A stretch of 63,946 bases of DNA, filler included, from Neolecta irregularis DAH-3 (taxonomy: Eukaryota): the NCBI GenBank assembly GCA_001929475.1. It is 8 parts of 8 records of this genome, joined end to end, with 100 filler letters (N's around TTAATTAATTAA, not from the genome) between each part and the next. Parts side by side here need not be neighbours in the genome. Positions count along the whole stretch, not along the records: positions 1 to 23,814 come from LXFE01003415.1; 7 more parts are not named here. One strand, given 5' to 3'. Numbering within the stretch: position 1 is the stretch's first letter; every line of letters starts with the position of its first letter. Shown one piece after another: positions 4,454 through 27,222 of the stretch. A program made the translations under genes and the position numbers. The notes beneath the pieces are model-generated. The model had not been told where the DNA came from. It made no database searches and was given only the letters and a program-made list of their open reading frames with translations.

Positions 4454-7299
4454 CTAATACTTTTCAGCCATGATCATGATCACCATTGAAGTCCACCCAG
4501 TGAATGGAAAGCTTCTTTGCCCTCTGCCAGTTTCTTGGTCATATTGTTCCCAGGCAAACCCCGTCCTCTCCCACTCATTAAAAATATTCTGAATCACGTT
4601 TTCCCTCAGTTCATTGTAAATCCTACTCGCAGTTTCGCGAAATGGCCCGTCTACGTCTATATAATTTTTCTTCAAACTCGACAAGGCGAGGAAATTAATG
4701 TTTATCCACACTGGACCTCTCCAGTAATTTTCACCCTGGGAAAAATGAGGGTCCTTTTTGGAGAGAGATCGCAGACCATAGGGGGACCAGATTTCCTCTG
4801 GATCGGACATGAATAACAAGATTGCCCCGAGATGGGGAGAATCTGCAGGCAAGAGGCCAAGAAGCATGGGAAAGAGTGAGAGGTAGCCTTTGTGACAAAC
4901 GAGGATGCTTTCTTCATATTCATCGATAGTTGAATCGCAATATGCCTGATCTTTTTCACTCCAATGAAGGTCTTACTATCAGCAAAAATATCCAGCAAGG
5001 ACAAATATTCAAACCATCGATATTTCGGATAATACTTTCTTCGATCTTTTTAAATTCCTCAACGTCGTCGCTTTGTCCCAATTTTTCAGCAATACGCATC
5101 AACATACGTGTAAACATTCCCATCCAGCTGATTAAATCGACGTGAAGTTCACCGATATGTGGGGGCTTGGCACGCGGGTAATCATCCAGGCCACTTGTAA
5201 AACAATGGTCTGGTGTTCTTCCACGCCATCGATATCCCTCCTTCAAACTAAACGCCTCTCGCTCCCAAGTTCTGATGTCGCCGATCTGTGATTTGCGGAA
5301 CCAATAGTAATGCTGTTTTAATTTTGGGTAGAGGGATTGCAAATATTCAGTAGCAAGGACGGGGTATTTGATATGTGCTGAAGATAGCGTCGACCATGGA
5401 ATCTGAGATTCCTCAAGAACTTGCTGACGTGAAGATTCAAACTCTTTTAGAAATCAGAACCCGATATAATGCAGGGAAATACCATATTCCATGGCCTGCT
5501 TTTCTTCTTTTTCTTTTTCTGCTTCATCGAGTTGTTGAAGGAATTGATTGACGGCCAAAATCAGCGTAGGCGGATTCGCATAATGGGGATATTGAATTTG
5601 AAATTCCGGCGGGACTTTACTTCTGGCTTCTTCACCCAGTATTTGTTCCCTCGCAATCCAACCATCTTGGTCCATCAATCCGAACCAACTCTTAATGATC
5701 TCCAAACTAATAATTAGGATTCAATGGTAATTCTACCCAAGGGAAAAAAACCTCAAATCAATGTCCCATAAACCAATAGGCAACAAATGGAATCCTTCAT
5801 CCCAATAAAACCCCCTTGGAAAGAACGGCCTCGAAGGAATACTCGTGAATAATTCCTTCTCTTCCGCTCGTTTACTGTCGCCTCCATCAACTCCTTCCCC
5901 AGCTCTTGCCTGCTCCCAAAATTCTTCTTCTTCGTCATCGTCAATAATCTTACCAACAAGGGAATCTCCGTGAAAATATCCGATTCCGCCAATTAGATTT
6001 GAAAAAAGAGATTGTGCGAATTGGCGGTAGGAAAGTGACGTATATGGTTCCTTCAACGGAAATGTTTTCTCAAAATGGTCTTTGAATGAGAAATCAAGAT
6101 GCTCAAGCTGGTTATCGAGGCGTTTAGCTATAAATTAAATCGAGACAGGTAGAGCATAACTTACAAGTCATACGTTGCTCGCCAAACGAGAGTGAACTGT
6201 ACAGAATATCAAACTAGTAAAAGCGATTAGTGGATCGGCAAGGAGAAAGAAGATACTTGAAACGAGCCCTGAAATGTCTTTTGTGTGAAGTGGAGATTAG
6301 CAAGGGGGTCTTTTTTGTTAGGAAGAGTGTATAGGATTGCAGCGGGCGGTAGTTTTTCCTTTCCATATCGTTTTTCAAGTCTTTGGAAGACAAAAGATAT
6401 CTCTGAGAATAAGAGATCTAATTTCTCAGCATGAGCAGCAGGAAAGCAGATACCCTTGGCCTTCCAAATGACGTTCCCGGGTACTTGTATTGAGGCAAAT
6501 TGCGTGTTTTGCAAGTTGACAAGCTTGGAACTGTCGTGTTGGGGTTGCGGGTACTTGTTACTATCAGGGCCTGTAGTGATTTCAAACGAAAAGTCTCCAA
6601 GTATAGGAGCCGATCCGACGATTTCCACGGGTCCCTCGATACCCTTTCTCATCAACTGGGATACCAACGCAAAGAGGCAACATTGGAGTTACCAGCAGAT
6701 GTAATTTCGAGATTTCCTAAGCCTTCTAGACCGGCGTAGAAAAACACAGTCGTTTTGCGATGGTGGGATAAAGGGTTAAAAAATATCGTACAGAGAGGGA
6801 ATACCATTATCTCGAGGTGTTCCACGGACCCTAAGCGCCCAATGGCCTCCTGAATTGGTTGGCAACCACATGAGTAAAGATGAGATACCTCTAGATCCAC
6901 CAGAAACTTTGACAAATTCAGTTTCAATATCAACACCCATTCCTACATCTCGGATCCTCTGTATTCCCCCTGTTCTCGGATCAAATTCGTCCCATCCATA
7001 GCCCAGGATATCATGACTCTGTTCACAAGTATGTCGAATGTCTAGGTCTGATCAATACGAGACTCAATCTGCACTGTACCGTTAATGCTTCCCATGTCGT
7101 CAACATTGGCCCACATTATTCCAGTCAACAGGCTTTTGGGAATTCGGGGGCGGAAGCCTGCGTATAACTGAGGGCGATAGGGACCCCATAGCAACGAATC
7201 GTTTTGTGCCTTGGCGACTGCAGACAACAATGACTCTGTGGACAAATGCTGCTGAGCTATCACAAGGGCCGAGAACAACAAAACCCAGATGCAACTCAT
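4454..7299 (-). CDS. CWH41: Mannosyl-oligosaccharide glucosidase I (GH63)
   Basis: SLLWGPYRPQLY, LFTSIPSRPFFPRGFYWDEGFH, GWIAREQILGEEARSKVP, SGLDDYPR, ENYWRGPVW, FTGWT; about 10 introns, one ending in AT (6804-6768). Confidence 0.95.
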
Positions 7300-8337: not shown

Positions 8338-8704
8338 ACAAAATATCGGAATAATAGAATAGTACTAATATTCATTTGATGCAGGAAGACGATGTTGATC
8401 CAGGTCTTTGCTATGACGGCAGACCGCCTTTCGATTTTCTCTCCGTACTTGTTGGCAGGGTTGACGTCCAGGGTCCGAGGCAGAGATCCATAGTCGAACA
8501 AGATCCGTGGTGCGACCAGTGCAAATGCAAATGCACCCAGATTCGCCCTCTGTAAACAGGCAAATGTCGGAAAGTGACTTGCAGAGCACAGGCCTCAGGC
8601 ATGTACCACATCCCATTGTCCCTTAATTAACTACTATGACCAACCCTCCTAATTTGGTGCCATACCACCAAGTCACCCCGACCGCCTTTCCCACAACCTT
8701 CCTC

Positions 8705-9267
8705 ATGCCTCCGAAGCTCTCAAGTATTCTCTTCTTGCCGTCTTCTTCATCCTAATGTACAGCTACAATCTCGTCCACTAAGAAGGCCCAGGTCGCCAAA
8801 AAGGCTGCCCTCAAGGGTACTCATGCGAAAAAGGCCCTCAAGGTCCGCACTTCCACCACCTTTAGGCGCCCAAAGACTCTCCGTTTACCCAGAAAACCCA
8901 GAGTCGCTAGAAAAAGCGTCCAGCACCTGCCCCGTCTCGACCATTTCAGAATTCTCGTCTCCCCTCTCAACACAGAGTCCGCCATGAAAAAAATAGAAGA
9001 AAACAATACTCTAGTGTTCATCGTCGACATCAAGGCAAACAAGAGACAAATAAAAGAAGCTATCAAAAAGATGTATGATGTCGAGGCCCTCAGAATCAAT
9101 ACCCTCATCCGGTATCTCCCCATTCCACCCCCGGCTCACCCTAGGCCCGATGGAACCAAAAAGGCATACATAAAGCTCACTCCTGATGTAGACGCTCTCG
9201 ATGTGGCAAACAAGGAAAGTTTTCCTTCTCATTTCCATTATTGATCCTCTAGATTGGTTTTATTTAG
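8705..9267 (+). CDS. RPL25: 60S ribosomal protein uL23 (L25)
   Basis: [47 protein letters not shown]; the conserved end DVANKIGFI* requires a GA-AG intron at 9215-9252. Confidence 0.96.
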
Positions 9268-9467
9268 ATACATAACCTATATCATTCGCCATTTCCTTTC
9301 TCCTCCATTGTCATAAGATGTGACTTTCACCAAACATCAACCCTTGATATATCGCTATCTCCAGCAGTTCTATATTCCTATCCTTCCCTCCAATGCAATG
9401 CAAAAGAATTATCCCAGAGCCACAACAAATATCAATACACTCTCTTCATCGAATCCAGTTTTTCAAT

Positions 9468-9708
9468 TCAGGGTTTCCCCGCCGCACAGTCTTTACAAAA
9501 TCCCCTTGGAACTTTATCATTATCACCGCATGCCATCTACAGAGCATACCGTGAGTGCAGTTGCGACAGCCTGCCGTTCTGCATTTATATAATGGATTCT
9601 TTGCCCATTCTGCGCGCTCTGCGTCCGACATGTCTGAATCGTCAACCGGCGTTTGTTGGGATATCGCAAGTAGACCTAAGTGGGACCTCTCTTGTGGGCC
9701 AAGGCCAT
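9468..9708 (-). CDS. Putative 49-aa C4 zinc-finger microprotein (copy A)
   Basis: Exons 9708-9687, 9633-9550 and 9511-9468 joined by GT-AG introns (53 and 38 nt) give MALAHKRDMSDAERAEWAKNPLYKCRTAGCRNCTHVPRGFCKDCAAGKP. ATG in AAATGG context; TATATAAA about 180 nt upstream. It could instead start at 9631. Confidence 0.55.
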
Positions 9709-10530
9709 TTATTTATGATCTCTGCCCTTGGCTTAATAACTGAATACCTGCTTGCGGACCCTTTCCGAAGCATCCAACGTGGAACGAGTTAGACCACTCA
9801 CCCACAATATTCGTTCAAGAACAAACTGCTCGGGATTTCCGTCCTGCTTGAGGACTTACACGTGCAATACATTAAATAAATTCTTTATATATTCTTAGAT
9901 TTGCTATTGTACTATTGCAGAGAGGAAACAGCTATCGAGGCCTATAATAGCTAGGTGAGCACCCCTGGTCGTCTACGTCATCCTGGAGTCTGGCGTCCTC
10001 GAGATCCGCTATCCTCGAAAGTTCGTCACTGCTTTTCCATACATCCAGCCGGAAAAACTCCTCTGGTCGGTATGCCTGCACCGCAAGCTGAAGTCTCGAA
10101 GCTCAGCGGGGGGCACATCCACTGGTTCGGCCTTGCCATCCCATGACCTCATCCCTCAGTGCTGGACACTAGAAAAGGTGACTAGCATACGCACAGCACA
10201 CCACGATAGCATAATAGCCTCTGAATTCAACCCATTTCGGTCCTAATTGAATATTACAAATAGCACAATAATAGTAATCGCCCTACAGGTTTATTTTCAG
10301 TAGCCAAGTGCTTCCCCTCGTCTCTCCGAGGCTGATCCTTGATCGTATACCCGAGAACCGGTGTCGCGCCGTCCATTTATGTTTAATTTACGCCGTATGG
10401 TCAATTCTCTAATTTATCTATGCATCAGGCACCACACCTAGATGGAGGGAGCGTCAGGAATGTTTCCGGCAGATCTTGCAGCAGTTACTTCGTCCCGTCC
10501 TCCTCACTGTCGTTCATATACACTGTCAAG

Positions 10531-11650
10531 ATGCGGTCGTTTCTTCTTTTGGCATCTGTTATTTCTTTAGGTTTGGGTCAAATTCTGGGTTTTTCTTGCC
10601 ACGTGTCAATTTGTGCTTATGCAGTAGACGATGACATATCGACTACAGCATCTACAGATAACAGCTTGGCGCCCGCTACGATGACTGCAAGTAGTTCTTC
10701 TTGGCCTTAACCTCGGTTTGACCCAGCCGGATCGAAACGATCATGGCAGTCGCGCCAGGAACGGCACATGATTCCCTCAAGCACAAAACAAGCAATTTCT
10801 TCAAACTCTTTACTACTGGCGTGCCGGCCTTGCAGCTTGGGTTCACGAATGGAACGGTGTATGCGTCGTATTGTTATCTGAGCGTTCCACCCAATGGCAG
10901 GAATTTGACGGTTGTACAGTCTGTCACGCCAGGGTAGACTCAAACTTGGTTTCTGTCTGCAGATTCTACAATCGGATTTCCTGGATTGGGGACATCTGCT
11001 TATTTGTTCTTTGGGTGCCCGTTTGCTGCAGGATATGATTTGGCTGCGTATCTACCAGGGACATCTTCCACTCCCGGATGTATCGCAGCTCAACTCGTCA
11101 GTGCTCGAAAAAACCAGTAGCATATCTACTTCCACATCTGCTGCACATACTTCGATTATTCCAAACGTCAACCCTTCGATATCTAATCCCGGTTATATCA
11201 ATGTCGTCGGCGGAACTCGAATCTATTCCAATGGCACAACTATGGCATATCCTAACGGCAGAAACATTACAATCACGACGGGTATTCAACTGGTTGTTTG
11301 CGCCGATGGAATCCATTGCCAAATCTCTTCAAGCACAACCTCTTTGTCACCATTATATACAGTCAACTGTGTCTCCATGAACGCTTGCACATACACCAGC
11401 AAGCGCCATCACCCGTAACCTGTTTTCGACCGTCTCGTTTTTGTCATCACCTACTAATACTTTCCCAGCTACCTCGGCTAGTAATGTTACTACAATTACA
11501 AGCATGACCGTCTTGCCGAGCTCTAGGAGAACTCCATCGACGACTGCCAAACCCGGCCCTACCAGTTCCGCCTATAAACGGCCCGTAGCCATCGCTGCTT
11601 CAGTCATTCTATTATTCGTCGTCATTATATACGTGGCAATTTGCTTTTGA
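10531..11650 (+). CDS. Putative secreted/cell-surface Ser/Thr-rich glycoprotein with C-terminal hydrophobic anchor; internal exon structure unresolved
   Basis: Signal-peptide-like MRSFLLLASVISLGLG, S/T-rich blocks, several N-x-T sites and C-terminal VAIAASVILLFVVIIYVAICF; several intron-like breaks. Confidence 0.55.
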
Positions 11651-12422
11651 ACCGATTACCTTTCCAGCTAACCCTAATCCTCATCCTTGTCTGGCCCCGC
11701 TAGACTATCTCCCTGTACAGAATCCCTTATCACTTACCCTTGAAATTTCAATTCTGCCGTCGAGGTACTATACTATTATTGTAATATTCACGAGATTCGG
11801 TTACTCCAATGATATTCTTTTCGTGCTAAAAAACTTGCTTTCCAAATTTACCGTGTCATGATAAAATATTTAACGTCACTCTTTTAAACCCTTGGTATCT
11901 CAATTTTCGCGCAGGTCACCTGCTCAAGCCAAGAAAAAACGAGCTCGTGTTGAAATTGGGGTGTCATGATATCACCCGGTGTCCTTGGGGTAATTCCGAC
12001 TTCATTCCTCTGATGAAACTTGAAGAGGAAATCTTGTAACTGCGAATCTGGTCCGAAGTAGAAAACGCGCAATTGGGTGTCCTCATCCAGTATCAAAGAG
12101 GACAAGTCGAGCTTTAACCCACGAATTTAAGTTTTTTTTAACCCAGAGAATGAATGCTTTATGAAAATCAAAGGTAATAATCCAGAATTTGTAACCCGCG
12201 TTAATATCATACAAAAAATACCCATTCCTGTTTCCATTCAAAGAATTATCAGTACGTCTTGCGACTGTATCAAATCAATGAAACCCGAATGGCGAGAAGA
12301 AAGCAGTAACAATGAATGCGAAAAAAACTCCCCGGTCATTTAAATATTCGATACAGTACGCCGTCGCTGGCGTCTCTCTTGAACAGTCACTCAAGTTCAA
12401 CAATCTCTAGGGTGTTGGCTTA

Positions 12423-12622
12423 TCAAAAGGTCAAACGCGGAATTCCCGTACCAACTTCTTCTTCTGGATCTTTCCTTCCAGCCTGCTTGCATGAATCGCA
12501 TATCTAAAGATCCATCAGTGGGTGCCAAGGGGGAAAAAAGGGGGTGTCTGGAATACCGTCCACTTGACAGGAACGATCTTGCCGCATCCCGGGATTTTAC
12601 AGATGTACCGTTGCTCAACCAT
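12423..12622 (-). CDS. Putative 48-aa C4 zinc-finger microprotein (copy B)
   Basis: Exons 12622-12557 and 12503-12423 joined by a 53-nt GT-AG intron with CTGAT branch give MVEQRYICKIPGCGKIVPVKWTICDSCKQAGRKDPEEEVGTGIPRLTF. Confidence 0.6.
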
Positions 12623-13563
12623 ACTGATGGATGTGATAGAGAATTTGAATAAGTTTAATTCGCGGAATGGAAATGGCGAATTTTTTGCGAATGAAGAGAA
12701 TCCAAGAGCAGGAAAGGAATGAGGGCTTATAAAACATGCCAACCGGGCGGGGTTCCATACCCGCCCGCCAGAAGCTTGAATTACGGGTCGAATGATGACT
12801 CGGTGCCTTTTGACAAGCTGAGCTCGGACTGCAATCTAGCCATCGCTAGCTTCAGTAAGGCTGTCACACAACCCAACGATTTCTTGATTGAATCGGCACA
12901 AGTTGTTTCAACTTGAATGACTTTAATTCCGATTTTTAGAGCCTAGGCAAAGCATTAGTTTTGTTAAATGAGGGGATTTTACGGGATTTCCCTGAGTTTA
13001 AAGATCGTTGATCGCCTGTGTTGCTCATTTCCTATCCGCTATCTTTTTCTTTGTTGTTTTGCTTGCTCGTTCTCCCCCTTGTGTGGGGTTTCAGGGGACA
13101 TTCCAGTGACGTGCGAAATGTCGCGATATCAACTGGGCCGTACCAGATTGGTGATCTCACCGCTGATCAGTCTCAAACTTAATCAATCTACCAAACACTT
13201 GTTTTTTCCACTCGGGGGTTGACAAGTTGGAGGGATTCCCTATAGCCTATGCAAGCAAGTTTCTTTTTGTTTTCAATAAAAATTTGGAAATACAAATTAG
13301 AGCCGCGTTGAGCTAATTACCAAGTTGCCCACCGGCCCGGTCGAGGACTACAATCAGCTGACAAGCTATTATTGAGAGCTTCTATAAATGATCGAATTTC
13401 ATAAAAGTCATTTATAACATTAATAAAGTTTGCATTGGGAGCACGCAACTTGGCACGGTCGTGGCGTGGCGTAAAGAGGAATTGGCAATTATCTAAAAGA
13501 CAATGAAACTATTTGAATGCTCAAACCGTTTTTCCTTATCGTGGCCACGTCTAGCCCAATTTG

Positions 13564-16435
13564 TTATCTCTGTGTCTCTCCCATTTCTTCACGTTTCTCG
13601 CATTTGTCTTCTTGCATGAATATATCTTCGTTATCATGTTGCACAGACATCTGTGCAATCTGCTCCTCGAAAAAATCTCGTTCAAGTTTGGTATGGTATC
13701 CAAGCGCTTTCATTCCACTAGGATATCGACGAACGTTGTATCCTTCGATTACTGCTCTCAAAGCATGCTCTTGAGGCTAAATCCTGTAAACTTGGTCGCA
13801 AAATATTTGCGCTTACCAAAGCATCATCAATGTCAGCTTCAACATCCAGCCCTGAAAGCCAATCTTCTCTCAAATCAGGCCGGCAATGCAAATATATAGA
13901 GGTGATTACTCGCATATTGCTTGACCTCCATTTCCGTCCACAGTAAGGGATTTGACCTTTAGTAATTTTGAGAACATATAACCGCAAGTCATCTTGTGCA
14001 ACTTTCAAGGGCTTTCTGAGGATTTGCTGGTAAAGGGTTAGCCAAAAGCCTTTTGGGATAAAGGGATACCCAGGATTTGTACTGGACAAGGATCAGATTA
14101 CGATGTGCCTTTTTTTTCACCAACTTTTGCAAAATACGAAGAAAATTGATCGATGTAAAGAATAGCCGAGATGAGTATTCGGTAATGAGAGTTTGGTCCT
14201 CATCGGTAGTGGATGGAGTGATGGCGATACCACCATTTGGTTTGAGGAGCTCTGGTTCAGATTGTTGTGGATTAATTGGAGAGTGACAATTCTGTGAATG
14301 ATTGCTACAAACCTGAAAAAAACTGTTGGTCAGTATAATCTTTGGAAATGGGTGATTACTTGGACTCTTTCATCTCGCATGTTTCTATAATCGAAGTCGA
14401 CAAGTCTTGAAGACCAAAGACTTTAAGTAACAGTAAAGGACATCTTGAATCAACAAGAAGTTGGCTTAAGAACTCAAATTTGAGAACATCTCGTGATTAG
14501 CCTCAGTCGAATAATTTTGCAAACGTGAAACTCGAAACCACTTCAAGAGAAGGAGGATAATCCCAGATATTGCTTTCATTGTAACTTCTCTTGTCCGAAT
14601 GTCATCAATTTCATCCAACGTCAAGCGTCCTTGGCTTTCTCCGCCTTCTTCGGCATCTATGTGATCAGATGAAGCACTCCTCATAAGTAGATACCTTCTT
14701 GAATTGGGCTCAATTGAGGAACATTGACTGCTGCCAAAAGCACTTTCAGCAAGACCACAACACAACTTTGCAAATGCGGAAGACTCGACTTCTGCAAACT
14801 TAAAAAGAAAAAGCTGAGAGTTGACGCACATAAGTTTCTTCAACTATGCGTAGCTTTATTGCTTCAGGGGAGTCGTCCTTATTCTCCGATTCATCGTCCA
14901 CAGGATCAATCCATCCTCTTTCAGTTTTCAGAAAGATATCTTGCTCTTTCCAAAGTTGAAAAGTGGCCAGTGACATATTGAGGCGACTATGAAACAGCTC
15001 TCCGGCTTCTTTGATACTAAATGGAATCGATTCATTGATTTCGTCGGTGATTGGAAATAAAAACGGCATATTCTGGTCAGTTTGGAAACTTTGTTTCTTG
15101 AGTTTCGGCGAGTTAGAGGGAGAGGGTGCAGCTGACGGCATAGGTGTAGCAAGATAGGTATTATTCAGGAGAGGCAGTTCTTTGGGTCGTGAAGCATAAT
15201 CAGTATAGGATGGCGTAATAGTGGTTGCGTCAAAGTCGATAGGTAGACAAGGGGGTGGGGGTTGACAGGACGGATATTTTGAAATGACTTCTTGGCGATA
15301 AATGTGATAATCGAGAGGGGATGCGGTTATGATGTCTTTGGGAAGTTCCTGAGGCAGACCTGCTCGTCGCCGTGCATACTCTTTAGTCTTTAAAAGTTCT
15401 GTGCGCCCACCGAGCATGGCGAGAATGGTCTTCCATAATACCAGGAATATCTGTAAAATGAGGGAGAGTGGGATATAATGCTTGCCTGTCGAACTGGATA
15501 ATCTGTCCCCGACTTCCATCGTAATATGCCCACCATTTCTATAAAGTATGGGAGTATTGCAGGCTGTAACGCATCTGGCAGCATCAGCAAACTGGAGCAT
15601 CTATATGTGTACACAATCCATCTCGAAAACTTTGGTCTGTCCTGAGTACTTCGAGCATAAAGTACATAACGGTAAGGTGCAAGACCATTTCTAGTCGGCA
15701 CGAGCTACGCTTCTGGGAAGCTTCTTGAGAGAAATCGTCTTCTTCTGTAGCACTATGGTAAGGGTCTATACATGGTAGAGTAGTTCGATACCTTTCCCAG
15801 AAGATTTCGCATGTGTTTCTAAAGGACTGATAAGTCTTGTAAAAAACGGATCGACTGTGAAAATGTCTAGCGTTCTCCGTGATCCAATGAAACTGATGCT
15901 CTGGTGCCGTTGACTCGCCAAACACGCCTGAGACCTAAATATATGCCCTGCAGCCAGAATCTGTACCACCGACGACATATAACAGAAGCATGCCGGCATG
16001 GATTCTATCTGCCTGTTCTGACGACTGCAACTGTTGCAAGAGATCGTCGATGTAGCTGGAGCGGGTGTCTATGGAGCTCTTTGACCAGACTAGCGTGTTG
16101 GGATGTGTAGGAAAGGGGTGAGTACCTCCATATCTGCCTTCGTATTCCTGCTTTGCTTCCAAGAGGATCTCGTTGTCTCCATAGCTGAACCATTCTTGCA
16201 GTTCGGCCTTGAGGCTGTCGGTGTCCTCGTACTTGTAGGCGTAAAGAGGCAGCTGTCCGTTCAGCGCCTAGGTTGTTGCACCTCGGGCTACCTTTGGCCG
16301 CGGAGTCTGGGCGACGAGTCTCCGCAGCTGGCCCAGCGTGAGCGAGTCGCGGAGTGTGTCTGGGTCGCCAGCAGCATCGAACAGCGGGGCATTTGCATTC
16401 TGGATCACAGCCCGCAGGCCGTTGGTGCCGTTCAT
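13564..16435 (-). CDS. FAR11: STRIPAK subunit Far11/STRIP (N1221-like)
   Basis: [91 protein letters not shown]; about 12 introns including GC-AG 15485-15451. Confidence 0.93.
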
Positions 16436-24202: not shown

Positions 24203-26551
24203 TCACTTAAAGTCTACATCATACCACCAATTCTTCAAGCATTGAGTTGCTTCAATCGTATCCTCACTCATCCTATTCTTTTGTTGTGTAATCAGCAGCT
24301 TTGCAAGACTGAATATGCGCTCACATTCAGCTGCCATAGCTGGGATGGAGAGTAGGTCGTACGCCATATGGGTGAGCTGTGGGTATTCAGCTTCATGATC
24401 TCTCCACCATTGTAGAATATTATCAACTCGTTTCGGGACAAGTGCAATGTAGGATTCATATTCATCAATAGAGGGAGTTGGTTCGTAGTAATCGGCTGGA
24501 GTGAGAAAGGCTTCAAAGGCATCTAATTCGTGTGTGGTAGCTGTACTGGTTTGGGTTTGACGAGGTTCAATATCGCTGCTTTTCCAATTCTCTTCATAGA
24601 ATACTTGCACGGCCTTTTTGGCTGACTCAACCCATTCCTGATTGGTTGCCCAACATCGTTCTATATATCGCCAGCTGTGGCCTGGGTTGAGTACTAATGA
24701 GGAGATGTAAACAGGAGACTCATCAGTCAGATTGTAATACTTGTCCAGCTTCTGCCAAGCATTGTTGATAGCCATTCGGAAGTGTTTACAACAGTCTTCA
24801 GAGAGGTCTGTTGGAGGCAGCGATAGAGTAGGAGGAAGAGTATGTTTTCGATGTTGTCTTGTGGGTGTTGAGTTGGTGACATCAGGAGTAGTGGAATAAT
24901 CGCGATATCTTATCTTGAGATCTTCAAGATGTTCAAGGATGAATTCAATGTTAGGTAGAACCTCCCAAATGGCTCCATGATGGCCTTGTTCAGCTCTGCT
25001 TTGGTGACGCATTGTAGAATCATAAAACGGCTTCAACATCTCTGCTATCTCAGTAAGAAGCAACCAATCATCTTGACTCAAATGATCTTCCCTAGGTACT
25101 CGCTTGTATACTTCTCTCTCAACCTCACATCTGGCAATGAAACTATCAATTTCATGTCTCTTCTGCAGCGCTCGTGTAAGCATTTTGTAGGTTGAGTTCC
25201 ACCGTGTATCATTATCCTGCAGAACTTGTAGATTCTTTGTATCATGGTTCAACATAGATGTGGAGTCTTCCACCTCGAGGTTTGATATCTTGATGAATAG
25301 CTCTCTACGCTGAGGAGTTCGCCTTATAAAAACGACAATATTATGCAGTTTCCCAATAGGCCCGTGTCGTCTCCAAAGTTCAAGAGTCTCTCGTTCCCGT
25401 CCAAGTGTAGTGTTTGTATCTAGCTCCACCTCAAATGTGTCAGCATTCTTCCCAAATAAGAGTGCTTTGGCAGTGAGATTCAATACATGTCCCCAACAAC
25501 GTAATCTTCGTTCTTTAATCTCTCGAGATGTAACTTGAGGGTTGAGGTATTGAAGGAAGGTACGAAGGCAGGTATCATTGGACTTGGCATTGTCGATATT
25601 GAAGAACCCCACACGTGCCCAAGTTATCTCATAATCAATAGAAATTTGAATTAGGAGTTGGGCCATATTCTCGCCTGAATGAGATCCTTGGAGGCGACGC
25701 ATTCCTATTAATCGTGTTTTGACAATGTGTGATTGGTCCAAGTAGTGAGCGACTACTGCCATAATAGTTAGTTGGTTAGGTGAGGTCCAAAGGTCAAATG
25801 ACAGGTGGATTCGACTGAGAGATTTCTTTATCTCTACTTTAATTTCTTCTGAAGTAGTTTGAAATTCCTTCACTAACCAGTTCCGTATGGTATCACCACT
25901 TTGGGGAAGGAGGCTACCAATATCAGGTGACGCGATCGCCAAGAGCTTCCTGAATAGCTTATTTTCAACGGCAGTAGTAGATACATTTGCATCAACCATC
26001 CATCTCAATAAAACTGACTTGAAGCTCTCTGCTCTTAATTTCACAATCGGGTTACAAGTTATGGCTCTTCTTTGCATATCAAGCACACTTGTTGGGTGAC
26101 GTTTTGATGGCGGATTCTGCTCCTTATCCTTCCCATGTTCATAGAGTTGATGTTTGTTTTGTAAGTGGCTGATGGAATTGGATGTAGCCTCTGCTGCATA
26201 TAGTGTGAACAAATGCCTTGTATCACATCTATCACAGCTCCAAAAAGTCTTATCTTTCTTTCCTGATGTGTTGATTTCAAGGAGATAGGTCCCGTATTTC
26301 TTAATCCATGAAGTTCGTTTCCGTTTTTTATGTAAGTGATCTTCTTTGATAAACTTCCTTTGGCCAATCAAAATGTGAGGTAATTTGTTAAATGTGCTAT
26401 TCTCGGTAAGGTTTGACAGGTCGATATTTGATTGTTCGGCAATTGAGGTTGCTTGGTGGAGGTTTGAAAGGGCATTTATATTCAAGGAGCTGGATGGGGA
26501 GGATATGTAGGCTTGACAGGATGTCACAGAGTCGGTATCATCATCAACCAT
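24203..26551 (-). CDS. hAT transposase (about 782 aa, uninterrupted)
   Basis: BED-like finger (WSCDRC..HLQNKH), SFDLWTS, IDNAKSND, RCWGHVLNL, TRWNSTY, dimerisation domain WWRDHEAEYPQL..LSIPAMAAECERIFS. Confidence 0.93.
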   Translation of the reverse strand: MVDDDTDSVTSCQAYISSPSSSLNINALSNLHQATSIAEQSNIDLSNLTENSTFNKLPHILIGQRKFIKEDHLHKKRKRTSWIKKYGTYLLEINTSGKKDKTFWSCDRCDTRHLFTLYAAEATSNSISHLQNKHQLYEHGKDKEQNPPSKRHPTSVLDMQRRAITCNPIVKLRAESFKSVLLRWMVDANVSTTAVENKLFRKLLAIASPDIGSLLPQSGDTIRNWLVKEFQTTSEEIKVEIKKSLSRIHLSFDLWTSPNQLTIMAVVAHYLDQSHIVKTRLIGMRRLQGSHSGENMAQLLIQISIDYEITWARVGFFNIDNAKSNDTCLRTFLQYLNPQVTSREIKERRLRCWGHVLNLTAKALLFGKNADTFEVELDTNTTLGRERETLELWRRHGPIGKLHNIVVFIRRTPQRRELFIKISNLEVEDSTSMLNHDTKNLQVLQDNDTRWNSTYKMLTRALQKRHEIDSFIARCEVEREVYKRVPREDHLSQDDWLLLTEIAEMLKPFYDSTMRHQSRAEQGHHGAIWEVLPNIEFILEHLEDLKIRYRDYSTTPDVTNSTPTRQHRKHTLPPTLSLPPTDLSEDCCKHFRMAINNAWQKLDKYYNLTDESPVYISSLVLNPGHSWRYIERCWATNQEWVESAKKAVQVFYEENWKSSDIEPRQTQTSTATTHELDAFEAFLTPADYYEPTPSIDEYESYIALVPKRVDNILQWWRDHEAEYPQLTHMAYDLLSIPAMAAECERIFSLAKLLITQQKNRMSEDTIEATQCLKNWWYDVDFK

Positions 26552-27222
26552 TGTGATAATAATGCTGATGATTGCTGTAGGGCTTAAATAATAACAGTGA
26601 AGCTCATTGGTGATAATGAGAGGTGTGGTAATAACCTCCCACTGACCCGCCCTACCTGTCTGTCCCACCCACCCACCTTTCCCATCTGTTGCACTTGCGC
26701 ACCCAATTCTCCCTTCCTGGCCACTCACCTTCCCCATCTGTCCCACCTGCCTGCCCGCCCTTCCCGTCTGCCCTACTCGAGCGCCTGACTCTCCTGTCCC
26801 GCCTGCCCGCCTTTCCAGTCCAACCCACTCGCCTGCCCTCACTTCCCATCCGTTCGTCCCACCCATCCGCCTTTCCAGTCTGTCCCACTGGCGTACCCGA
26901 CTCTCCCATCCCGGCAGCCCGCCTTTGCAGTCCGTCCCACCCGACTGCCCTCACTTCCTGTCCCCACCCTCCCGCCTTTCCCTTATGTCCTACTCACGCA
27001 CCCGCCTCTCCCGTCCAAGCCGCCTGCCTCTCCTATCCCAGCTTGCCCAACTCACCCGTCCCGCTGTAAACGTATTTTGCGGTTACGCTTATCAGTGTTA
27101 TGTGAAGTTAACCAAACTTGCTNNNNNNNNNNNNNNNNNNNNNNNNNNNNNNNNNNNNNNNNNNNNTTAATTAATTAANNNNNNNNNNNNNNNNNNNNNN
27201 NNNNNNNNNNNNNNNNNNNNNN

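Follow-up and report, generated by a model that had tools for sequence, protein, structure and literature searches.

The DNA considered here is a stretch of 63,946 nucleotides (nt), filler included, joined from eight parts of eight records of the Neolecta irregularis DAH-3 genome (GCA_001929475.1) and referred to below as the window. Its first part, positions 1-23,814, derives from LXFE01003415.1 and carries two very small putative genes, A and B, which lie on the minus strand 2.8 kb apart (2.7 kb in the original prediction) with RPL25 on one flank and a FAR11-like gene on the other. Once a single intron is removed, each would encode a short peptide with four cysteines spaced C-x4-C-x10-C-x2-C. 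The original prediction, made from the sequence alone, had described two microproteins of about 48 residues that share an A20-like zinc finger; this length holds for B (48 residues) but not for A (41 residues). Coordinates are window positions unless another locus is named.

Gene A begins with an ATG at 9631. Its first exon (9550..9631, minus) comprises 27 codons and contains the first knuckle, Y-x-C-x3-G-C, while the second (9468..9511) adds G-F-C-x2-C, five further residues and a stop, giving the 41-residue product at 9631-9468. The intron between them (9512..9549) is 38 nt long, is in phase 1 and reads GTATGC...AAG with a weak branch point. The finger had been thought to be completed only by intron removal, which is not the case for this gene, where the unspliced frame (9446..9631, minus) stays open for 61 codons. 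Translated in frame, the intron adds C-x2-H at spacer 8 and produces a 61-residue form with C-x4-C-x8-C-x2-H. Gene A might be used mainly or partly with its intron retained, the two second halves of the finger being alternatives. The retained form is the commonest one (17/23) in the N-terminal finger of phage HNH endonucleases of the family phrog_144, scores 13.7 bits as opposed to 12.4 for the spliced form on a hidden Markov model (HMM) of family-picked fingers described below, and was completed by read-through in 0.4% of shuffled gene A introns; the weakness of the branch point also favours retention. The donor and length of the intron, on the other hand, are typical. When the DNA behind the retained finger was shuffled, a spliced alternative appeared in 0.6% of trials, but one with a Gly-aromatic pair before the third Cys in 0/50,000, so that the spliced peptide is the harder of the two to obtain by chance and the better-supported product. 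The likeness between intron and exon 2 (12/21 nt at a 44-nt shift) ties with three other shifts, and a duplication origin of the intron has no support beyond this tie. Retention as the main or a partial state of gene A is very unlikely; the retained frame would reflect a second isoform or else a coincidence at odds of 1 in 250. TATA-like elements that are consensus matches only are located about 85 nt upstream (9710..9716, AT-rich) and at 9891-9886 on the same strand. Directly before the ATG, at 9642-9634 (minus), a branch-point-like TTGAC is followed by CAG, which suggests an intron in the 5′ untranslated region or an upstream exon; there is no good donor within 60 nt.

Gene B begins with an ATG at 12622 and a first exon (12557..12622, minus) of 22 codons, in which the first knuckle takes the form Y-x-C-x2-P-G-C. 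The phase 0 intron (12504..12556) of 53 nt opens with GTATTC, contains a pyrimidine run and a CTGAT branch, and ends in TAG; it includes an in-frame stop, and for this gene the claim that splicing completes the finger stands. Exon 2 (12423..12503) supplies I-C-x2-C, a charged tail of 21 residues and the stop codon, which brings the product (12622-12423, minus) to 48 residues. A TATA-like box, again a consensus match only, is found about 110 nt upstream (12727..12733, minus). The upstream regions of A (9840-9831) and B (12991-12982) share an exact 10-mer on the minus strand, of which about 0.15 are expected by chance, and no DNA repeat common to the two genes was found.

Both spliced frames fit Y-x-C-x3-G-C-x5-V-x3-[FI]-C-x2-C without gaps, as originally aligned, and gene models built from the sequence reproduce the proposed junctions 9550^9511 and 12557^12503. 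The peptides have in common a Tyr two residues before Cys1, a Gly before Cys2, a Val six residues after Cys2, and a Phe or Ile before Cys3. They are also basic, with eight Lys and Arg residues against four and six Asp and Glu residues in A and B, respectively. The caution that had accompanied the alignment, namely that intron positions differ and identity is low, is borne out by the introns, which lie 16 nt (A) and 27 nt (B) after the Cys2 codon, and by the residues outside the cysteines, of which 3/23 are identical (p = 0.036). At the sequence level, mutual homology of A and B is weak and rests on spacing and neighbourhood. As the genes are neighbours on one strand, an old local duplication is probably their origin.

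The introns of A and B are ordinary for this genome when compared with a reference set of 20 introns from neighbouring conserved genes, modelled with our own script, which measure 33-56 nt (median 39) and show a GTAT donor in 12/20 cases and an AAG acceptor in 3/20. The contribution of chance was estimated from 5000 dinucleotide shuffles of the interval 9301-13560, in which single-intron, ATG-led open reading frames (ORFs) of 25-100 residues were counted whenever the intron split a Cys/His finger under a loose definition. Two such ORFs with equal spacing are present in the real interval, whereas two on one strand occurred in 0/5000 shuffles and one in 103/5000. The frames, the splice signals, the spacing and the non-random pairing of the two genes are established by these analyses.

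Screens for further copies ran across the contigs of the source assembly (14.2 Mb, 4542 contigs). The first knuckle alone, Y-x-C-x3-G-C, occurs at chance level genome-wide, with 57 sites compared with 59 in the control. Seven splice solutions resulted from 89 distance-compatible sites. Five of these are situated within Cys-rich or repetitive frames, and only A and B combine a short ORF that starts with ATG and a GTAT donor. No third copy of the A/B type was found in partial screens that required a Gly before Cys2 and an AG-ended intron between the second and third Cys, and that covered 30 loci, 50 stretches and the window (of 97 intron-distance matches), 30 loci and a further 10 judged in frame by eye (of 101 unspliced matches), and 25 loci (of 347 matches to a looser pattern). 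The best other candidate reached 12.8 bits on the phage-finger HMM, against 18.2 and 17.5 for the pair. This candidate, L499:2070-2234 (+) (G000:C3859), is an unspliced intergenic ORF of 54 residues with C-x4-C-x11-C-x2-H that is not separated from chance. A Cys-rich, metallothionein-like ORF was also met in the genome screen (L081, G000:C971 ~4586-4730, +). The “family” of the original prediction thus comes down, after a partial screen by HMM and pattern, to two members of weak mutual homology.

Relatives in databases were sought by several routes. Shared-word searches returned no homologue for unspliced A among proteins of 33-107 residues, nor for the first exon of B extended by the frame around it among proteins of 24-79 residues, and scans of the exons and unspliced frames against Pfam and PHROGs gave nothing under an expectation value (E) of 0.09. 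A PDB sequence search with exon 1 led to C2H2 fingers for B and to a weak PHD match for A (E 0.66), both of which were judged to reflect generic knuckle likeness. In an Atlas search, the first match of unspliced A scored 0.89 with recognition below threshold, the nearest named cluster being EsV-1-7 (0.79). The full consensus was also used as an unspliced DNA pattern, which could not match intron-split fungal homologues; it hit 4 viral, 19 metagenome and 17 prokaryote loci, rejected by eye as stop-containing or non-coding frames save for one phage ORF of 38 residues with a different knuckle. Within the genome, zf-A20, WRKY19 and KDZ CxC6 gave no match over the cut-off. The literature, judged by titles, held nothing on these microproteins or on a link between HNH fingers and A20, although the genes could be listed in an annotation table built from transcripts. 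The claim that zinc-finger microgenes stand alone in this orphan interval is supported at the sequence level, neither exon 1 sharing words with a database protein. Judged by the searched databases, in which it was not found, the stand-alone, intron-split, four-Cys fungal finger is a new form of the known small Cys4/Cys3His finger.

These results also bear on the possibility that one or both genes are non-functional, either as chance ORFs or as decayed relics of a larger finger gene or mobile element. The lack of homologues in the database searches, the appearance of a single spliced finger ORF in 2% of the interval shuffles, the chance-level frequency of the knuckle and the unequal intron positions would all be compatible with this. 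It is nevertheless rather unlikely in view of the pair, which no shuffle reproduced, and of both genes having an intact start codon, intact splice sites, all four ligands and a stop; moreover, a donor element is not indicated by any KDZ CxC6 or WRKY19 match over the cut-off in the genome.

As far as sequence can tell, the known module that comes closest to A and B is the finger at the N-terminus of phrog_144 HNH endonucleases, which is the best on offer with a modest likeness. A pattern derived from A retrieved 16 viral loci, 14 of them open frames, of which 7 are at the N-terminus of an HNH endonuclease; the two HNH proteins scanned against PHROGs matched phrog_144 (E ~1e-18). The B-derived pattern gave 31 loci (3 with stops) and 19 distinct open fingers, including ORFs of 51-90 residues and further N-termini of HNH proteins. 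To these a family-picked set was added with the aim of avoiding the circularity of an A-based pattern. Its phrog_144 genes came from a search with the family itself, in which 30 loci in 151 genomes yielded 23 fingers with Gly beside Cys2. Against Cys-fixed shuffles, the family-picked HMM scored 12.4 bits for A (p 0.001) and 10.8 bits for B (p 0.003); when the Gly or every lead position was kept constant as well, the p values were 0.015-0.04 (A) and 0.014-0.02 (B). A Cys-pattern-enriched 546 kb of the organism's own DNA gave 80 spliced finger-like candidates, among which A comes first and B second on a combined HMM of family-picked and pattern-related phage fingers, and first and fourth on the family-picked set alone.

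Both peptides contain the C-x3-G-C-x8-10-C-x2-[CH] arrangement of the phrog_144 finger, also seen in residues 1-38 of the GVE2 HNH protein and in Group 1 of Xu and Gupta 2013, as well as its hydrophobic or aromatic residue before C-x2-[CH]. A four-Cys, spacer-10 form occurs in phages (8/10 distinct fingers) and is also present there in stand-alone ORFs of 51-90 residues. In contrast to the phage fingers, A and B are fungal, intron-split and devoid of a fused HNH nuclease domain, as the ORFs stop 5 (A) and 21 (B) residues past the finger. Most phage copies have a spacer of 8 and end in His, and their likeness to A and B beyond the ligands is modest. Deletion of the N-terminal zinc region from a phage HNH nickase weakens its activity and relaxes its specificity (PMC3592412), which fits an accessory binding role for this region; the same source describes zinc-ribbon proteins encoded next to HNH genes.

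A phage finger with four Cys and spacer 10 was modelled as a proxy for A and B. In a profile search of the PDB, 34 phage fingers matched the N-terminus of the GVE2 HNH protein (E 2e-10), a region that is disordered in the crystal structure 5H0M (PMC5304195), followed by A20 ZF7 (E 0.02) and ZF4 (E 0.99). The AlphaFold model of the proxy has a mean confidence (pLDDT) of 86.5 and a helix at residues 24-33, from Cys3 on. The top 5 rows returned by Foldseek for this model are A20 ZF7 and ZF4, with E 1.3-8.5 and a root-mean-square deviation of 1.0 Å over 32 residues, and the top 4 rows from VIA-align are A20-type fingers with Z 2.6-3.9. The term “A20-like” is reasonable as a description of the predicted fold, by proxy only, because the sequence search and both fold searches agree on the proxy. 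An Atlas search with the proxy finger led to unnamed clusters of 30-34 residues. The N-terminal finger of phrog_144 HNH proteins (L444:310-429 and relatives), whose structure is unsolved, resembles A20 ZF7 both in the profile search and in the fold predicted for it.

As a statement of family membership, “A20-like” does not hold up equally well. A20 fingers (PF01754, such as TNFAIP3 ZF4/ZF7, ZFAND5 and Rabex-5) share with A and B the four Cys and the Gly before Cys2, but in a reference set of 71 fingers from 64 proteins they have a spacer of 11 in 71/71 cases, as had been stated at the outset, where A and B have 10. Spacer 11 is also the published pattern, with one atypical case of spacer 8 mentioned (PMC9570247). 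An aromatic-Gly loop after Cys2 (68/71) and an aromatic residue or His after the last Cys (62/71) are absent from A and B, which differ further by standing alone. Could they still be true A20-type fingers acting as free ubiquitin adaptors? The proxy fold is one point in favour, as is the Gly-Phe before Cys3 of A at the place where ZF7 has Gly-Tyr. The scores on an A20 HMM of the SAP/ZFAND type are low (2.7 and 1.0 bits) but do not exclude kinship, because the seed profile, which catches ZFAND5 and Rabex-5, also misses the TNFAIP3 fingers. Given the differences in spacer and in both aromatic features, and a genome in which no zf-A20 match was found, this reading is highly improbable. By these sequence criteria A and B are not members of the A20 family, and ubiquitin binding, which in the Rabex-5 finger involves a polar patch of ubiquitin (PMC1832185), is unlikely. 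A20/AN1 stress-associated-protein-like genes were observed on the giant-virus contigs L240 and L241.

The cysteine spacing of A and B is shared with RanBP2/NZF fingers (PF00641) and with the ZC4H2 finger, and the peptides could therefore represent two-hairpin zinc ribbons of the RanBP2/NZF or DZR type, ZC4H2-like in having spacer 10 without the family Trp and Asn. The RanBP2 pattern C-x2-4-C-x10-C-x2-C (PMC12383448) describes both, a Tyr occupies the position of the RanBP2 Trp, and B reaches p 0.048 on a RanBP2 position-specific scoring matrix. The full signature, W-x-C-x2,4-C-x3-N-x6-C-x2-C (PMC12383448), however, has a Trp two residues before Cys1 and an Asn four residues after Cys2, where A has Tyr and Thr and B has Tyr and Val; the Thr-Phe pair of NZF fingers is absent as well. 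HMMs of A20, of 46 RanBP2/NZF fingers and of 25 Zn_Ribbon_1 fingers gave A and B at most 5.9 bits (p 0.12-0.45), which amounts to no signal, although the RanBP2/NZF set is biased to NZF fingers with a two-residue knuckle and does not permit full exclusion. RanBP2/NZF had been the first reading and was dropped after the HMM and matrix scoring. No RanBP2-type entry is among the fold-match rows of the proxy, lists which exclude nothing that they do not show. The Zn_Ribbon_1/DZR pattern C-x2-C-G-x8-[FY]-C-x2-C-G differs in that A and B have a four-residue first knuckle and no final Gly, with 5.9 and 3.2 bits on the corresponding HMM (p 0.12 and 0.19). A two-hairpin ribbon of either type is on balance quite unlikely.

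A further resemblance is to the WRKY19-like (PF24906) and EsV-1-7 (PF19114) fingers, which share the 4-10-2 spacing and C-x3-G-C-x-K; on the WRKY19-like HMM, B scores 10.5 bits (p 0.011), while A is not significant (p 0.15). The fourth ligand is Cys in A and B as opposed to His in 303/304 WRKY19-like fingers, from seeds gathered with a His pattern, and this His is usually followed by Gly-Gly within tandem arrays. WRKY19 and EsV-1-7 are each matched by 8/34 phage fingers. That A and B are the first fungal stand-alone members of an undescribed clan joining phage HNH, WRKY19/EsV-1-7 and A20 fingers, with a splicing switch in gene A between ligand sets that both occur in phage nucleases (Cys4 with spacer 10 or Cys3His with spacer 8, in 41 or 61 residues), would be a bold proposal with little probability.

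Taken together, A and B may be real single-intron microgenes whose products bind zinc and work as basic, free-standing modules that recognise nucleic acid or an acidic surface on a protein, a reading to which we assign a probability of about 0.5. Each gene would give rise to a soluble peptide that is small, lacks a signal sequence, amounts to barely more than one four-Cys finger and stays inside the cell. One zinc would be held by the C-x3-G-C knuckle and by a C-x2-C with which a short helix begins, arranged as in A20 fingers and, according to the model, in the N-terminal finger of phage HNH proteins. Such a peptide might serve as an adaptor, or it might compete with a larger finger protein; the role of a binding module other than a ubiquitin receptor is suggested by the absence of the aromatic-Gly loop together with the basic charge.

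Several points weigh against this reading of A and B. The fold scores of the proxy are weak (Foldseek E 1.3 at best, Z not above 3.9), random short Cys-rich peptides also yield confident models (PMC12383448), and with only 5 residues after the last Cys, A can hardly accommodate a helix. Scores on the HMM are low, and the choice of the phage family followed a search with a pattern derived from the residues of A. In the family-picked set the fourth ligand is His in 23/23 fingers and the spacer is 10 in 2/23, while cross-tests on the broader pattern-picked sets gave p 0.45 for A on the B-picked fingers and p 0.13 for B on the A-picked ones. Added to this are the marginal identity and the differing intron positions of A and B, the lack of an orthologue in the shared-word search, and nucleic-acid binding that is deduced from charge and analogy only.

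The conserved flanks are a ribosomal protein L23/L25 gene (RPL25, 8636..9244, plus, 3′ end approximate) and a FAR11/STRIP-like gene with N1221 and DUF3402 (13564..16435, minus); RPL25, FAR11 and CWH41 are names assigned from Pfam matches or recognised sequences. Genes A and B sit on either side of an orphan (10531..11650, plus) with a signal-peptide-like start, a Ser/Thr-rich stalk and a hydrophobic C-terminal tail. Nothing points to a functional tie between A or B and this surface-protein gene. The motif [FY]-[ST]-N-G-T...P-N-G-R-N-[LI]-T occurs twice in it, at 10842/10890 and 11224/11251, which suggests an internal domain duplication; no gene model that joins its plausible frames with AG acceptors alone was found, nor any homologue by shared-word search among database proteins of 180-2000 residues. 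Rfam gave zero matches at the locus. Elsewhere in the window, the glucosidase I (Glyco_hydro_63) gene has an intron donor at 6804 (minus) without a frame-keeping AG acceptor. Use of an AG, the first of which lies at 79 nt, would drop the next exon stretch, and the best fit is an intron of 37 nt (6804-6768) that has AT as its last two bases and a branch-like TTAAC close to them, possibly another non-AG micro-intron. A hAT transposase-like open frame of 915 codons lies at 24203-26950 (minus), on a different contig part.

If A and B are expressed, they are genes that both ORF callers and the searched protein databases have missed, each exon being shorter than 30 codons, and they would hint at a hidden layer of spliced microproteins in fungi rich in micro-introns. 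As tiny peptides that can be synthesised, they bear on the relation between the phage HNH and A20 folds and on the partner of a stand-alone finger. At present, they are a modest lead.

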